From contig NZ_JAYKGW010000166.1 of NCBI RefSeq assembly GCF_035285525.1, forward strand, positions 1-6,098: a stretch of 6,098 nt of DNA, written 5' to 3'. This document shows positions 502 through 6,098 of the stretch, in pieces; the first letter of the stretch is position 1, and each line of letters starts with the position of its first letter. Position numbers and translations under genes: made by a program. Origin of the DNA: Okeania sp. (lineage in GTDB: Bacteria > Cyanobacteriota > Cyanobacteriia > Cyanobacteriales > Microcoleaceae). The notes below the pieces were generated by a model that saw only the letters and a list, made by a program, of their open reading frames with translations, was not told where the DNA came from and made no database searches.

Positions 502-636
502 ATGAATGAAAAGATTTTGCCCCAAAAAAATGGCTATCTTAGTTTACCAGATTTAGAAGATGCAATTAATGCGCCCATCTGCACAAAAACTATTAATAGA
601 TTTTTTATGATAGAGAACATCCAGAAGAATCTTTAG
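502..636 (+). CDS. Small upstream ORF (44 aa, MNEKILPQKNGYLSLPDLEDAINAPICTKTINRFFMIENIQKNL); possibly the displaced N-terminus of the 660-1406 gene
   Basis: ATG at 502 is preceded by AAGGTG (485-490). The ORF ends at TAG 634-636 and is absent from the supplied track, presumably because it is below a length cutoff. It can be joined to the open frame of the next gene by a 1-nt change in the T6 run at 601-606. Confidence 0.3.
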   Translation: MNEKILPQKNGYLSLPDLEDAINAPICTKTINRFFMIENIQKNL

Positions 637-659
637 GCGATTGGGTTAAAAATTTTAGT

Positions 660-1406
660 GTGTCTCTAAATTATCGGGTTAAAGAAGAGGATATTGAAAA
701 GCTAGAAAATGTACGAAAAAGTTTGTATGTAAGAATTTTTGAGAGCCTAAAAAATTGGAAAAGTGCAGGAGTTGTTGGTCAGTTAAGTAAACCAAAACTC
801 GAATTAGTTTTATATAAAGACAAACCTTACTATCAAAGAGACAAGCAAAGGTTATACATAGAATTTAGATATAAAAGTGTTCGTGAAACAAATATTACAA
901 TCTTGTTTCGGTGTTATGTACACAGCAATAACTTGTATATTGCTGTTGATTCTTATCTGTTGGGAAGACTACAAATTATCATTTTTTGTATGCATAACTT
1001 CTTCCTACTATTTATTTTCATGACTTTATTTTCTCTTGGCATACCTTTCCTTATTTTGGGGTTGATAGTTTTGATACCTTATGCTAACTGGATTTGGACT
1101 AAAATAATTAAGGCTTTGAGGCAAGGAGAAGGATTTTTAACTTCTCTTCGCCAACGTTTCCACAAACCAATTAGTGATAATTCTTTTGATGTGGATGATA
1201 AATCTATAATTTTGAAAGCCATATTTTCTTTAATACTGCAAGCAACGAAAAATGCTTTTAAGGAAAACAATTTTGCTGTTGAAGGTTTAGATGAAAAACT
1301 AGATGAACTTATAAATAATGCCTCCAATCAAACATTTAATATTGTTGCGGAAGGTGGCATATCTGGTGCAATTTTTGGTGGAACTAGCAACAAAGTTGTT
1401 AACTAA
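660..1406 (+). CDS. Uncharacterised membrane protein (248 aa as tracked) with a central two-helix hydrophobic hairpin and a Gly/Asn-rich C-terminal tail
   Basis: This is the long ORF in this region; the only antisense ORF is shorter (82 aa). Residues ~104-147 (nt ~969-1100; IIIFCMHNFFLLFIFMTLFSLGIPFLILGLIVLIPYANWIW) form a hydrophobic stretch long enough for two TM helices, split by a G-I-P turn. The start is uncertain. The tracked start is GTG with no obvious SD, there is no in-frame ATG for ~110 codons, and the frame is open back to 600. Confidence 0.6.
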   Translation: MSLNYRVKEEDIEKLENVRKSLYVRIFESLKNWKSAGVVGQLSKPKLELVLYKDKPYYQRDKQRLYIEFRYKSVRETNITILFRCYVHSNNLYIAVDSYLLGRLQIIIFCMHNFFLLFIFMTLFSLGIPFLILGLIVLIPYANWIWTKIIKALRQGEGFLTSLRQRFHKPISDNSFDVDDKSIILKAIFSLILQATKNAFKENNFAVEGLDEKLDELINNASNQTFNIVAEGGISGAIFGGTSNKVVN

Positions 1407-1461
1407 ATATAGTTAGAAAAATAACCCTATTTGAAGTCTTTATAACTGAGGTGCAAAAAAA

Positions 1462-1779
1462 ATGAGTGACCAATTTAAAATAACTGCAAAGAAAATTGAA
1501 GGAAGTCTATTTGGTGGTGTGGGCAATACTATAAAAAATAATTTTAGTAGTATTCAAGATATCCCTGATTCAGAATTATCTGAAGAAAAAGTAGTTGAGA
1601 TATTAGCAAGTTTAGAGGATAAAATTCAGTCTTTTCCAGCACTAACACCTGCGACTAAAGATGAATCAATACTCAGTATTCAGCAAGTTAAATCTGAAGT
1701 TCAAAAAGATGTTCTTAATAAACAGCTTGCTGCCAGAAAACTGGAGACTTTTCACAAAACTATTAGTACAGTAAAATAA
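1462..1779 (+). CDS. Small hypothetical protein (105 aa), probably helical, whose N-terminus repeats the C-terminal motif of the upstream membrane protein
   Basis: ATG at 1462 with GAGG at 1448-1451. It lies 55 nt after the upstream stop on the same strand with no intervening terminator, so co-transcription is likely. The N-terminal FKITAKKIEGSLFGGVGNTIKN (1474-1539) matches the tail of the previous protein. Confidence 0.6.
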   Translation: MSDQFKITAKKIEGSLFGGVGNTIKNNFSSIQDIPDSELSEEKVVEILASLEDKIQSFPALTPATKDESILSIQQVKSEVQKDVLNKQLAARKLETFHKTISTVK

Positions 1780-1800
1780 GCAAAGGAATTAGCTGAAGAA

Positions 1801-1848
1801 GTTGTTCCTATTACTGTCAAGGTAATTTCTTGGTTAACAACACTTTTT
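1801..1848 (+). terminator. Weak AT-rich hairpin plus T5 run downstream of the 1462-1779 gene
   Basis: GTTGTT (1801-1806) pairs with AACAAC (1836-1841). An inner stem pairs ATTAC (1810-1814) with GTAAT (1822-1826). The hairpin is followed by acTTTTTgt (T run 1844-1848). The stem is imperfect. Confidence 0.25.
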
Positions 1849-1890
1849 GTATAAGTAAATAAGTAAAAATAGAATAGGTAGATAATTTTC

Positions 1891-2770: not shown

Positions 2771-3421
2771 ATGGTAGTTTCATCAGCAAATACCCAATCT
2801 TTTGTGAAACTTATCGAATACTTAAATTGTGACGCTATTGATAGCGATCGCTTATTAATTTATGGCGATATAAGCTGGAATACTTATGAAAATTTATTAG
2901 ATTATTTAGGTAATTCACCTTATTTTAAAGTTGTTTATCATCAAGGAATTTTACAAATTATGTCTCCTAGTAGTCGCCACGAAATTTACAAGAAAACCTT
3001 GGGAATGTTGGTAGAAAATTATTGTTTAGAAACCGGCATTTATTTTTATCCCTTGGGTTCTACAACTTTGAAATCTCAAGATAAATTAAAAGGTCTTGAG
3101 CCAGACCAATGTTATTGTATTGGTAGTAAAAAAAAGATTCCAGATTTAGCAATTGAAGTTGTAATTACCAGCGGAGGAATTAAAACTTTAGAGATTTATA
3201 AAGGTTTAGGTGTTTCAGAAGTTTGGTTTTGGCAAAATGGAGAATTACAGGTTTTTTGCCTAGAAAATGGTGAGTATTTGCAGAAAAATAATAGTCAGTT
3301 ATTGCCAAAAATTGATTTAGAATTGTTAGTTAGTTATCTAGATTGGGATGAGCCTTTTGATGCTATTTTAGATTTTAAAGCCAAAATTAGAAGTAAGAAA
3401 GAAGAAAGAAGTATTAAATAA
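2771..3421 (+). CDS. Uma2-family (DUF820) PD-(D/E)xK endonuclease (216 aa)
   Basis: Three motifs are characteristic of the Uma2 family that is highly expanded in cyanobacteria: GLEPDQCYCIG, IPDLAIEVVITSG and KTLEIYKGLGVSEVWFWQ. AAGAGG (2757-2762) overlaps the PIN gene's stop, 8 nt before the ATG. Confidence 0.85.
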   Translation: MVVSSANTQSFVKLIEYLNCDAIDSDRLLIYGDISWNTYENLLDYLGNSPYFKVVYHQGILQIMSPSSRHEIYKKTLGMLVENYCLETGIYFYPLGSTTLKSQDKLKGLEPDQCYCIGSKKKIPDLAIEVVITSGGIKTLEIYKGLGVSEVWFWQNGELQVFCLENGEYLQKNNSQLLPKIDLELLVSYLDWDEPFDAILDFKAKIRSKKEERSIK

Positions 3422-3433
3422 ATTAAGCAGCAG

Positions 3434-3501
3434 AAAATATCCCCCCAACCCCCCTTTAAAAAGGGGGCAGAACGAGTGAGAAGGTACAAATTTTTTTCAT
3501 C
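3434..3501. repeat. Copy A of a ~67-bp dispersed repeat (AAAATATCCCCCC-AACCCC-hairpin-GGGGGCAGAAnGAGTGAGAA...TTTTTCATC)
   Basis: Blocks shared with 4645-4711 in the same order and orientation are aaaatatcccccc, aacccc, gggggcagaa, gagtgagaa and tttttcatc. The internal near-palindrome is CCCCCTTTAAAAAGGGGG. Confidence 0.75.
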
Positions 3502-3660: not shown

Positions 3661-4296
3661 ATGACTCAAACTATTCCAGCTAAAGATATAAATATTCGTT
3701 ACCTGGTAGATAACTTGAGACTTAAAAGAAACCAAGACCAGGAATTTTTCCGGGAATGGCAAGATAATTTATCAGAACTTACTGACTTAGAAAAACAACT
3801 TTTAAACCAAGTAAAATCGGGATTTATTAACCTAATAGATTATCCCCCAGTGCTAGAAAATATTGTAATAATGGCAGTAGTTGACCCAATTTTATTTATT
3901 GGCGGATTTTTTCTTCATCCATTCTATATTCGTTCTGAACCTGCAATTAATTTAGCAGTGGAAGATAAAGATATTATTATTAAAGGTAAGATTGATATTT
4001 CATTAAAAGACCAATTTTGAGCAATGGTAATTGAGTCTAAAAAAGCTGAATTTTCTACTGAAGCTGGCAGAGGTCAAATTCTTGCTTATATGTTAGCAAA
4101 TCTTCATCCAAATCTTCCTAATTATGGGATGATTTGTACAGGTATAAGTTTTATTTTTGTTAATTTAGTGAATGGAAAACCACCACAATATGCTCTTTCA
4201 AAACTTTTTATTACTATCAATCCTGGTAATGAACTTTATGATATACTTAAAATTCTTAAACGTTTAACTAAAATTGCTTTATTAGGGATAATTTAA
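3661..4296 (+). pseudogene. PD-(D/E)xK nuclease (type I restriction R-subunit N-terminal, HSDR_N-like) interrupted by one in-frame TGA at 4018-4020
   Basis: ORFs 3661-4020 and 4024-4296 are in the same frame and are separated only by TGA-GCA. The joined reading is ...GKIDISLKDQF*AMVIESKKAEF..., which places the D and E-x-K halves of a PD-(D/E)xK motif on opposite sides of the stop. Confidence 0.65.
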
Positions 4297-4413: not shown

Positions 4414-4644
4414 GTTAATTATTAATTATTCTTGACTTTATAATCAGTCTATAATAACTAGATTTGGTATGCAGTGTTTCCCATTTTTATGAGGTACACC
4501 CCCATATGGGCTTTCCGGCCCGCACTATAATATTTTCATCGTTTACCCTGTACTTCATTTGCCCAAAATATGCTGTAAAACTCTTTATGGCCGAATCCCA
4601 TTCTCCCCTACTTTATATTCAATAGTCTTGTTTTTAAGCAACAC

Positions 4645-4711
4645 AAAATATCCCCCCCAACCCCGTTGGAAAGGGGGGCAGAAGGAGTGAGAAAATAAAA
4701 AGTTTTTCATC
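4645..4711. repeat. Copy B of the ~67-bp dispersed repeat
   Basis: Same block order and orientation as 3434-3501. The inner hairpin is CCAAC-ccc-GTTGG, enclosed by C-run and G-run arms. Confidence 0.75.
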
Positions 4712-4796: not shown

Positions 4797-5972
4797 ATGA
4801 CTACTTTAAATTTAATAAACCAAAACCTGGAAACAATTTTAAATAGCGCTCTCGAAGGTGACAACTTATCCCCAAAAGAAGCACTGTTATTATTATCTCC
4901 AACTACTGAATCTAATTTCAGCAAACTTACTTTAACCAAACTGCCACCAGAAGTAACCGCTATCAAAAAAACAGCAGATAAACTCCGACAACAACAAGTA
5001 GGTGATACCATAACTTACGTTATCAACCGGAATATAAATTTCACGAATATCTGCGAACAACATTGTAGTTTTTGTGCATTTCGTCGAGGCGAGGGAGACG
5101 CGGGTGCATTTTGGTTAGACACTGAGCAAATACTGGCAAAAGCTAATGATGCAGTAGAACGTGGAGCAACAGAAATTTGTATGCAGGGAGGATTAAATCT
5201 TCAAGCTAAAGTTGCCGGAAAATCTTTACCTTATTATTTGCAACTGGTAAAAGGGATTAAAAATGAGTTTCCGCAATTACATTTACACGCTTTTTCTCCC
5301 CAGGAGGTACAGTTTATTGCGAGGGAGGATGGCGTCAGTTATGAATATGTAATTGCTGCTTTCCGGGATGCAGGTGTCGGATCGATGCCAGGTACTGCTG
5401 CCGAAGTTTTGGATGATGCGGTGCGGCGAGTTATTTGCCCGGAAAAAATTGATACGGCGACTTGGTTAGAAATAGTCGGTACGGCGCATCGGTTAGGAAT
5501 GCCAACTACAAGTACGATGTTATGCGGTCATATTGAAACCCCCGAACAGCAGATTTTACACTTAGAGAGGTTGCGCGTTCTCCAACAAACTGCCATCGAA
5601 AAAGATTATCCGGCGAGAATAACCGAGTTTATTTTATTACCATTTGTTGGGCAAGAAGCACCTGCACCTTTGCGTCGGAGAGTAGGGCGATATCAACCTG
5701 TTTTATTGGATGTTTTATTATTAACAGCAGTGTCGAGAATATTCTTAGGAAATTGGATTATTAATCATCAACCGAGTTGGGTAAAACTTGGTTTAGATGG
5801 AGCAAAAGAGGCATTGAACTGGGGTTGTAATGATATTGGGGGTACGTTAATGGAGGAACATATTACCACAATGGCAGGTGCTGTGGGAGGTACTTGTATG
5901 GAGGTAGAAACTTTGCAAGAAGCTATTAAAAGTTTGGGTAGAAATTATCAACAAAGAGACACAGTTTATTGA
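4797..5972 (+). CDS. cofH: FO (7,8-didemethyl-8-hydroxy-5-deazariboflavin) synthase subunit 2, radical SAM enzyme CofH
   Basis: 391-aa ORF carrying the radical-SAM cluster motif [12 protein letters not shown] (CxxxCxxC). It also carries CofH/FbiC-C-type blocks: [50 protein letters not shown] and [20 protein letters not shown]. Cyanobacteria use the men pathway rather than futalosine, which argues against the related MqnC/MqnE. Confidence 0.85.
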
Positions 5973-5974
5973 AG

Positions 5975-6098
5975 TCAAAATTCAAAAGTCAGATATTTTG
6001 TAGGTTAGGTTGAGGAAGGAAACCCAACCAAATATGGAAGTCAAAATTTATGGATTCAAAATTCAAAAGTCAGATATTTTGTAGGTTAGGTTGAGGAA
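5975..6098. repeat. Direct repeat with 81-bp period immediately after the cofH stop, containing GTAGGTTAGGTTGAGGAA hairpin units
   Basis: The 43-nt string tcaaaattcaaaagtcagatattttgtaggttaggttgaggaa occurs at 5975-6017 and again at 6056-6098, where the window edge truncates it. gaagtcaaaatt also repeats at 5971-5982 and 6037-6048. The unit at 6000-6029 belongs to the same family as 230-318. Confidence 0.8.

Follow-up and report, generated by a model that had tools for sequence, protein, structure and literature searches.

Until now, bacterial amyloid signalling has been framed in terms of Bell-type effectors together with NLR or TGP sensors, with experimental proof in very few systems. The BASS motifs are about 25 amino acids (aa) long and terminal, are rich in Q, N, G, V and I and poor in K, P and L, and are shared by the proteins of neighbouring collinear genes, essentially only in multicellular or aggregate-forming Cyanobacteria and Actinobacteria, with a match reported in Cyanothece sp. 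PCC 7424 (= Gloeothece) (Dyrka et al. 2020, bioRxiv 10.1101/2020.01.06.895854). In E. coli ECOR25, the Bab/Agp system couples amyloid signalling with a non-NLR partner to abortive infection (Ibarlosa et al. 2024, bioRxiv 10.1101/2024.11.07.622273). Here we analyse a two-gene cassette carried by a 6,098-nucleotide (nt) stretch of DNA from Okeania sp. (contig NZ_JAYKGW010000166.1, assembly GCF_035285525.1; hereafter the window), in which a membrane-protein gene is followed by a gene for a small partner, and the C-terminal tail of the first protein and the N-terminal head of the second share a motif of about 23 residues. We hold, with slightly better than even confidence, that this module is a bacterial amyloid-signalling-type pair that combines a new membrane family with swappable small partners and no NLR.

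The tail-to-head motif and its cognate pairing

In the window, the tail copy of the motif makes up the last 23 residues of the 248-aa membrane-protein open reading frame (ORF), and the head copy spans residues 5-26 of the 105-aa partner ORF (sequences and coordinates in Table 1). Local alignment of the two with BLOSUM62 gives a score of 45, with two conservative pairs, one gap and 10 of 23 residues identical across the 55-nt gap between the genes. An initial annotation of the window, made from its letters alone, had placed both copies exactly and had likewise aligned them with one gap, counting about 11 identities where there are 10. Among 2000 shuffled controls, 20-34 reach the same score (p ~0.01-0.017, end-to-end placement not counted). 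Within the window alone the similarity is thus real and only mildly significant, and it is the comparative data that are decisive. The two motif-coding segments have only 21 of 45 nt in common, which rules out a recent duplication of DNA, and a motif hidden Markov model (HMM) scan of the window found no third copy.

In a word-indexed database of 5.8 billion proteins, the only close relatives sit next to each other on a 1185-bp contig from Okeania sp. SIO2D1; word-indexed searches with either window protein or with the motif alignment returned Okeania orthologues only, and a search for loci related to the Okeania pair returned nothing. The SIO2D1 orthologues keep the motif at both termini. Twelve substitutions between the orthologues fall inside the motif copies, one at the 10 shared positions and 11 elsewhere (binomial p ~0.01, from a hand count).

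More distant loci were recovered with a degenerate DNA pattern for F-D-x-D-D-x-x-[MI]-x-L-K-x-x-x-P in GTDB genomes and JGI metagenomes, filtered by the family HMM and supplemented by contig look-ups for representatives and by two plasmid records, which gave 28 independent loci with flanking DNA. A partner with the cognate motif is present at 27 of them, in Cyanobacteria, Actinobacteria and on plasmids; the sole exception, L149, has no motif-carrying partner. At 21 of the 28 loci a small partner gene with an N-terminal motif follows directly on the same strand, at a spacing that ranges from a 4-nt overlap to a 139-nt gap in the nine loci measured. Three further loci (L142, L147 and L157) have a downstream partner whose motif is C-terminal, and L148 has an upstream partner, also with a C-terminal motif. 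On plasmid pP742405 of Gloeothece citriformis PCC 7424 the partner lies one gene away, and on a Phormidium yuhuli plasmid it is transcribed divergently. The initial annotation had held that homologues which are never adjacent, or which lack the motif, would count against its proposal; neither applies, since other genomes have the homologues side by side and with a conserved, co-evolving motif.

On the two plasmids, some details of annotation may be recorded. The Gloeothece partner is an ORF that the incomplete PLSDB gene table omits (NC_011733.1, ~17654-18082, minus strand; ...GGSISVQTGGGTVVGSAIGGMNNTIDN...), of the partner type called A below and one gene downstream of the family member WP_012599391.1, which is fused to an FHA domain. 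On the Phormidium plasmid (NZ_CP098612.1) the clear divergent partner is WP_252665488.1, which adjoins a pentapeptide-repeat protein, and a second small ORF, at 6241-6603 on the minus strand, resembles the tail less closely (...NFEVNIGNAESVAGQVTGDQVN..., score 36).

Tails and heads match pair by pair. The mean tail/head score is 60 for cognate and 39 for non-cognate combinations (permutation p=3e-5, 9 independent lineages), and the cognate partner ranked first in 6 of the 9 lineages tested and for 7 of 10 tails overall. Examples are L025 (tail NGNGVMNVGGVMGDVVAGAGN, partner motif NGDGVMNIGGAMGNVVAGRRN), L140 (tail INISGGNIIGSAIGG, partner motif INISGGSIIGSAIGG) and the Phormidium plasmid locus L145 (tail FTGSVGSVAAKVHGNVTNIN, partner motif FTGSVSGVAGEVHGNQININ). 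In L140, where the tail and head peptides read STINISGGNIIGSAIGGLGNLVKGS and EEINISGGSIIGSAIGGKDNQVQN, 16 of 20 residues are identical and 10 of those 16 are encoded by different codons, e.g. serine by AGT and TCT; amino acids are likewise matched and codons diverged in L028, L021 and L025. Since synonymous sites diverge while the amino acids match, the match is kept by selection on the protein, and this comparison led us to reject gene conversion as its cause. These results show, as far as sequences can, that tail and head are under joint, pair-specific selection at the protein level. It follows that the two almost certainly contact each other, and the initial suggestion that the shared segment is a functional pairing tag gains from neighbouring genes of other genomes that carry it in conserved and co-evolving form.

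Two alternatives bear directly on these data. Chance resemblance, or a functionless scar of local recombination or duplication, would fit an alignment that within the window alone reaches p ~0.01-0.02. It does not fit motif-coding segments that share 21 of 45 nt, nor a motif that recurs at 27 of 28 loci in two phyla with cognate matching, its synonymous sites diverged and its amino acids matched; the comparative data refute this reading, to which we assign next to no probability. The other alternative is a shared processing or sorting tag, a site for a common protease or exporter such as a double-glycine-type leader cut after F-G-G. Double-glycine leaders are N-terminal leaders with cleavage after GG, and the partner N-terminus (MSDQFKITAKKIEGSLFGG, then the cut, then V) is superficially like one. 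At the extreme C-terminus of the membrane protein, on the other hand, the same motif makes no sense as a leader, the GG pair is missing from many family tails, and neither a C39-peptidase ABC transporter nor any other protease is a recurrent feature of the window and the neighbourhoods examined. Besides, a third-party reader predicts a family-wide consensus and not pair-specific co-variation. The processing tag, which the initial annotation had also proposed, thus found no support and is very improbable.

The membrane-protein family, its partners and their surroundings

When 1.84 billion cluster representatives were searched with HMMER, 102 matched the membrane protein as homologues at E<=1e-3 and 65 of these did so below 1e-10, a family of about 100 clusters at 50% identity; the cassette is therefore not the orphan that it was first taken for. 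The named hosts are Okeania, Iphinoe, a Prochloraceae metagenome-assembled genome (MAG), Phormidium, Gloeothece PCC 7424 and three Actinomycetota MAGs, and most of the 102 representatives are metagenomic. A typical member has 280-320 aa and follows a common layout: an N-terminal block F-N-R-x-x-x-D-x-x-D-P-x-E-x-x-G, a beta-rich domain, a hydrophobic region of variable length, a block A-L-R...S-F-D-x-D-D-x-x-M-F-L-K-S-x-L-P-L, a helical linker and a G/N-rich tail. Six residues are invariant (P41, G46, R117, F229, D232 and D233, numbered as in the SIO2D1 orthologue P0002). N-terminal fusions occur, to FHA in 5 of 57 members and also to a Zn-ribbon and to pentapeptide repeats.

As the initial annotation had supposed, neither window protein falls into a described family. 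The core of the family (57 members) and the window protein have no match in Pfam, NCBIfam, PADLOC, PHROGs or PDB sequences, and Pfam, NCBIfam and PADLOC show no Bell domain or other immune effector domain (TIR, CHAT) in either; nor does the searchable literature contain a description of the family or of the pairing. The membrane proteins thus form a new, undescribed family of predicted inner-membrane proteins of about 300 aa. For the window protein, the architecture first proposed (soluble N-domain, then a membrane hairpin of two helices, then a tail in the cytoplasm) agrees with the Kyte-Doolittle profile and with a low-confidence AlphaFold2 (AF2) model; the AF2 monomer models of both window proteins rest on shallow two-sequence alignments, and that of the membrane protein is poor (pLDDT 46.6).

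The partners are less uniform. Their bodies vary between loci, and by profile comparison the motif is the sole part common to the different types. Eight aligned loci, and L151 as well, have a helical partner that we call type A (...AAAEIQxLLxQLE...NPxLKxRxxSALKxGG...HPxxxFxxGAxxGW). In actinobacteria one type carries a W.L..A..IG hydrophobic helix; the window, L052 and L029 share a type with a hydrophobic helix at the C-terminus, and the L028 partner has a membrane helix of its own. The window partner, of 105 aa (130 aa with readthrough, against 112-160 aa for partners elsewhere; AF2 pLDDT 65), matches no domain in Pfam, NCBIfam, PADLOC, PHROGs or PDB profiles, nor, apart from that of L148 (below), do the partners elsewhere. 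In L150, the partner ORF at 3700-3876 has the motif at its start and then '...KTILILAANP' at the contig end, and may belong to a larger multidomain protein.

The partners with a C-terminal motif are of another kind. That of L148 is a HetE-N domain by Pfam (PF20701; 31 bits against a cut-off of 25), a Bell-related helical domain of ~100 aa whose N-terminal helix is hydrophobic; neither the window partner nor the window membrane protein matches it. Those of L142, L147 and L157 have a Bell-like layout, namely an M-[ED]-P-x-S-L hydrophobic N-terminus, a helical body of about 110 aa and the motif at the C-terminus, and hhalign finds no homology between them and the type-A partners. Among the effector domains of TPR-GreA/B-C-PIN systems, Kaur et al. 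(2021, PMC8195603) list HetE-N. We infer that it is the class to which Bab of Bab/Agp belongs, which neither source paper states.

This variety of partners bears on a toxin-and-antidote reading, in which the membrane protein would be a toxin that polymerises through its tail, the head of the partner would cap the tail, and loss of a labile partner would bring about death (addiction or abortive infection). A tight two-gene operon on plasmids and mobile elements, a toxin-like protein predicted to be membrane-embedded, a small partner translated downstream and the cognate specificity that an antidote needs all agree with it. An antidote, however, would be expected to have a conserved body, and the partner domain is swapped among at least four unrelated types, including a HetE-N death-effector domain and the L028 version with its own membrane helix; at three loci the motif lies at the C-terminus of a Bell-like partner, and in the window both genes are damaged, not one. 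We regard this reading as unlikely. Type II toxin-antitoxin pairs combine a small toxin of known fold with a conserved, usually DNA-binding antitoxin protein that has a domain dedicated to neutralising it; the present pair matches no toxin or antitoxin family, and the partner body is not conserved across loci.

No conserved third gene was found in the neighbourhoods examined. Some loci are plasmid-borne, with MobQ and integrase genes, and some sit among ordinary or housekeeping genes. In L023 (Iphinoe sp. HA4291-MV1), genes for small and large terminase subunits lie just upstream of an FHA-fused membrane protein, and L141 has a recombinase neighbour. The FHA-fused WP_012599391.1 of the Gloeothece plasmid adjoins WP_012599392.1, a Ser/Thr kinase that is transcribed divergently and has an SH3 domain; a kinase was seen only there. 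Protelomerase (ResT/TelK) genes lie within about 1.5 kb of the cassette in L052 (5135-6685), L065 (6119-7150) and L150 (824-2518), accompanied by ParA in L052 and by an integrase in L065, which suggests that these loci are carried on N15-like linear plasmid-prophages. About 330 nt downstream of the L023 partner, an ORF at 5447-7999 encodes an NB-ARC-TPR NLR-like protein with a G/N/Q-rich N-terminus (...SGGMQAIQGDNNIQLQGD...); this N-terminus is not obviously the same motif, and L023 is the only locus with an NLR nearby.

In two metagenomic contigs, L065 (8440-9359) and L072 (417-1422), a break divides the family gene into two ORFs, and L118 holds an intact copy of the L072 gene; with the window, in which the gene is also interrupted (see below), apparently broken copies recur. 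Plasmid carriage, protelomerase, terminase and recombinase neighbours, broken copies and dN/dS ratios (non-synonymous to synonymous) of ~0.46-0.49 are together typical of conflict systems. The role in conflict or abortive infection that the initial annotation had put forward is accordingly plausible, given the mobile context, the HetE-N partner of L148 and the three Bell-like partners. Its division of the pair into effector and regulator is not established: the membrane protein is the constant component and carries input-type fusions, and the partner domain is what is swapped, so that the membrane protein may be a sensor or hub and not the effector.

Amyloid-type signalling weighed against other readings

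The composition of the tails is distinctive. Relative to the rest of the protein, G (27%) is enriched 5.1-fold, N (12%) 2.2-fold, I 1.8-fold and V 1.5-fold, and T and S are also raised; L (0.12-fold) and K (0.42-fold) are depleted, P is absent, and Glu, Asp, Tyr and Trp are strongly depleted as well. For Cyanobacteria, an approximate consensus is [IF]-x-[IV]-x-T-G-G-G-x-I-x-G-S-I-F-G-G-x-x-N-x-[IV]-x-N, which reads as three short hydrophobic-alternating strands with G/N turns between them. In the AF2 monomer models both motif copies are of low confidence.

The likeness to BASS pairs extends from composition (rich in G, N, V and I, poor in K, P and L) to a range that covers Cyanobacteria and Actinobacteria among the named hosts, a motif of about 25 aa placed tail to head across adjacent collinear genes with the C-terminal copy in the upstream gene, pair-specific matching, and the gene order of Bell/NLR pairs. 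The domains differ: the protein with the C-terminal motif is here an integral membrane family of about 300 aa and not Bell, and the one with the N-terminal motif is a helical protein of 105-160 aa and not an NB-ARC or NACHT NLR. With Bab/Agp, in which a small Bell-related (HetE-N-class) protein has the C-terminal motif, the likeness lies in L148, where the membrane protein is paired with HetE-N. Unlike that system, whose Agp is a 1094-aa TPR-GreA/B-C-PIN sensor with an N-terminal motif, the non-Bell component here is the membrane protein and its motif is C-terminal; the partner in the window's subfamily is not Bell-like.

Taking into consideration the composition of the motif, its terminal position, the gene arrangement and phyletic range, and the replacement of the partner by HetE-N or Bell-like proteins, amyloid signalling has, in our view, the best support among the mechanisms considered. 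What we infer is a cross-beta assembly, a direction of signalling, cell death and a defensive role. The first component would be an inner-membrane protein of about 300 aa, with a cytosolic beta-rich N-domain, a hairpin of two (sometimes more) helices, a cytosolic SFDxDD...LK block, a helical linker and a flexible G/N/I/V-rich tail of about 23 residues. The second, usually encoded by the next gene, would be a helical protein of 105-160 aa that begins with the same motif. At rest, both motif copies would be unstructured; upon a trigger, one of the two proteins would self-associate and its motifs would fold into a stacked beta-arch (cross-beta) nucleus, which would template the matching motif of the other protein. 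The resulting co-polymer would lead to a membrane-damaging output and thereby to regulated cell death or abortive infection, protecting kin or the mobile element that carries the pair.

As to direction, we lean slightly towards the membrane protein as anchored hub or sensor-nucleator, with the small partner as an exchangeable output, because the membrane protein is constant and has input-type fusions (FHA, Zn-ribbon, pentapeptide), because in the Bell-type loci it stands where the NLR or TGP sensor would, and because the partner is swappable. The reverse order, with the membrane protein as executioner, is suggested by the membrane hairpin and by the classical geometry, in which the effector bears the C-terminal motif.

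Comparable arrangements are known from other systems. In HET-S/NWD2, HELLP/PNT1 and the RIPK1/RIPK3 RHIM necrosome, a short motif present in two proteins forms a cross-beta scaffold that engages a membrane-targeting death effector, and the fungal HET-S/NWD2 and HELLP/PNT1 genes are adjacent, as are the genes here. These systems are eukaryotic and built from unrelated domains (HeLo, NACHT-WD, kinases), and in HET-S templating frees a membrane helix from a soluble protein, whereas the protein described here is already embedded in the membrane. Curli CsgB and CsgA are likewise a nucleator and a subunit encoded by adjacent genes, with a common G/N/Q-rich amyloid repeat by which one templates the other; they are, however, secreted, have five tandem repeats and form an extracellular fibre, while here each protein has one motif copy, lacks a signal peptide and is predicted to place the motif in the cytosol. 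Finally, the abortive-infection effectors with two or four transmembrane helices (those of CBASS and Pycsar and the SLATT type) are also small membrane-hairpin proteins of conflict operons, thought to disrupt membranes, but they respond to nucleotide second messengers through sensor domains; no such domain or cyclase is found here, and PADLOC shows no sequence similarity.

Several observations weigh against amyloid signalling. Q is not enriched in the tails (0.41-fold), unlike in the published BASS motifs. With the HMMs built from the published BASS7, 8, 9 and 10 sets, no tail or head scored above shuffled controls (the profile test of membership covered BASS7-10), and none of the BASS1-10 data files contains the words GSIFG or FGGN. 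A recognisable sensor, whether NLR, TGP or another, was not found as a partner, and the partner is very small. In Bell and HeLo systems templating drives insertion into the membrane, and here the protein with the C-terminal motif is an integral membrane protein from the outset. A formal HetE-N partner occurs in L148 only, and the comparison of the Bell-like partners with it by hhalign is unconvincing (E=0.04). The family has no PADLOC match, no member in GenBank phage records and none in IMG/VR by DNA pattern. The window cassette itself is probably a decayed and inactivated copy, whose 248-aa and 105-aa hypothetical proteins would be remnants of a broken cassette. Lastly, pair-specific co-evolution is proof of contact or co-selection and not of a cross-beta polymer.

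It is here that stable docking without amyloid has to be considered. Tail and head would then pair once, in a small intermolecular beta-sheet or hairpin, and would tether a small soluble protein to the membrane for non-suicidal signalling, transport or an envelope function. Pair-specific co-evolution and protein-level selection suit any direct contact, an NLR or other oligomerising sensor is missing and the partners are tiny helical proteins, the association with FHA and a kinase suggests ordinary phospho-signalling, and some loci lie among housekeeping genes. Nevertheless, a motif with 27% Gly, 12% Asn and near-zero charge, Leu and Pro is typical of a beta-arch amyloid and unusual for a docking peptide; it is always at the extreme terminus; the copies are often broken and the loci lie on plasmids and mobile elements; and the exchange of the partner's folded domain for unrelated domains, including HetE-N, argues against a fixed complex. 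We take docking to be rather unlikely, and more probable than the antidote.

A more specific version of amyloid signalling can be offered only tentatively, as a possibility that we would not yet bet on. The membrane proteins may be NLR-independent, membrane-anchored amyloid receptors, in which the conserved N-domain would sense a cytosolic or envelope cue, in some members one relayed by phospho-signalling from a nearby Ser/Thr kinase to a fused FHA domain, and the prion-like tail would activate interchangeable executioners (Bell/HetE-N, type A or hydrophobic-helix proteins).

The window copy, its neighbours and the significance of the family

The copy in the window appears to be damaged in both genes. 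The SIO2D1 orthologue P0002 has 300 aa, 52 N-terminal residues more than the window ORF, and these extra residues match the window ORF 502-636 and then the stretch just 5' of the GTG at 660. Alignment of the two DNAs shows a lone gap, in the T-run at 601-606, and the addition of one T to this run restores a 301-aa protein; the missing base splits the gene into ORF 502-636 and ORF 660-1406, and is either a genuine frameshift mutation or a homopolymer assembly error. The window gene thus appears truly to begin at ATG 502, and the 248-aa protein of the initial annotation to be a frameshift-truncated reading of a gene for about 300 aa. The segment removed by the frameshift includes DREHPEESLGDW, with two of the six family-invariant residues. 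In the partner gene, the stop at 1777-1779 is probably premature and AKELAEEVVPITVKVISWLTTLFV its lost C-terminal hydrophobic helix; the SIO2D1 contig stops short of the corresponding position. Both genes are evolving as coding DNA with relaxed constraint: in the comparison with SIO2D1 the membrane gene has a dN/dS of 0.46 and the partner one of 0.49, while the other two frames of the partner give 0.8-1.1. A terminator scan found no terminator-like site between them.

Table 1. Features of the cassette, in window coordinates.
Feature	Position	Strand	Basis or remark
Probable true 5' end of membrane gene: ATG 502, 33 codons, MNEKILPQKNGYLSLPDLEDAINAPICTKTINR	502..600	+	Aligns with the N-terminal extension of P0002; dN/dS 0.67
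T6 homopolymer, 1-nt deletion relative to orthologue T7	601..606	+	DNA alignment; repair gives 301 aa
Conserved family block DREHPEESLGDWVKNFS, in the frame of ORF 660, 5' of its GTG	609..659	+	Holds invariant P41 and G46 (P0002 numbering)
Annotated 248-aa ORF, GTG start; C-terminal five-sixths of membrane protein	660..1406	+	Family of ~300-aa proteins
Beta-rich core of predicted cytosolic N-domain, RLYIEF...LYIAVDSYLLG	849..965	+	Invariant R117; near-invariant T126, Y146, L154; AF2 secondary structure of low confidence
47-residue hydrophobic stretch, read as two-helix membrane hairpin with G-I-P turn	969..1109	+	Kyte-Doolittle 153-203 (repaired protein); AF2 helices 157-178, 182-208
Predicted cytosolic juxtamembrane block ALRQGE...RQRF...SFDVDDKSIILKAIFSL	1113..1232	+	Invariant F229, D232, D233; near-invariant K239
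Tail motif copy FNIVAEGGISGAIFGGTSNKVVN	1335..1403	+	Low confidence, near-zero regular secondary structure in AF2 monomer
Intergenic spacer, 55 nt; GAGG 10 nt 5' of partner ATG	1407..1461	+	47/55 nt identical to SIO2D1
Partner gene as now read: 105 aa, N-terminal motif and helical domain	1462..1779	+	dN/dS 0.49; AF2 helices 20-32, 41-57, 63-104
Head motif copy FKITAKKIEGSLFGGVGNTIKN	1474..1539	+	Residues 1-18 pLDDT <50
TAA 1777-1779, then 24 in-frame codons AKELAEEVVPITVKVISWLTTLFV, then TAA 1852-1854	1777..1854	+	Hydrophobic; aligns with the C-terminal helix of 119-135-aa partners

Downstream of the cassette lie a gene pair, a Uma2 gene and a split PD-(D/E)xK-like gene. The initial annotation had counted a neighbouring PIN/Uma2/HSDR_N nuclease cluster among the features that fit a conflict module; the cluster does not belong to the system, and none of these neighbours recurs at the other loci. 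The pair at 2007-2758 consists of ORFs of 78 aa and 171 aa with an ATGA overlap, an unclassified pair arranged like a toxin and its antitoxin, and the PIN label given to the second (2243-2758) has no support in Pfam, NCBIfam, PADLOC or PDB. The Uma2 label was right: the gene at 2771-3421 is a near full-length match to the PADLOC candidate defence family PDC-S17 (E=6.5e-74). At 3661-4296, a single TGA stands between two abutting ORFs, of 119 aa and 90 aa (...GKIDISLKDQF / VIESKK). The second has a weak PADLOC PD_DExK match (E=0.001), and no HSDR_N match is found with Pfam; together they look like a split PD-(D/E)xK nuclease pseudogene.

The window also contains repeated elements. A 74-nt dispersed repeat with an internal C-run/G-run hairpin brackets the split nuclease gene (3423-3496 and 4634-4707, 82% identical), and at 30-110 there is a related hairpin sequence rich in C and G; these may be elements resembling miniature inverted-repeat transposable elements. 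Just after cofH, at 5970-6098, a 48-nt unit is repeated 81 nt apart. It includes a 29-nt element, GTAGGTTrGGTTGAGrAAsGAAACCCAAC, which is also found at 230-258 inside a doubtful minus-strand ORF.

The main interest of this work lies in the family that the window revealed and not in the window's own copy, probably a decaying remnant. If the amyloid-signalling reading is true, a whole uncharacterised family (~100 clusters at 50% identity), for which Pfam, NCBIfam, PADLOC and PHROGs hold no model, would join amyloid signalling; a prion-like switch would be wired to a membrane-resident component without a STAND NTPase and would be connected to FHA and kinase signalling; and a new motif family would become available for training detectors of amyloid motifs. 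The system is tractable, as the genes are short and intact pairs are found in the cultured Gloeothece citriformis PCC 7424 (pP742405) and on the Phormidium yuhuli plasmid. Should the membrane proteins be anchored receptors, as tentatively proposed above, they would represent an unrecognised branch of regulated cell death or immunity in multicellular bacteria and their plasmids.

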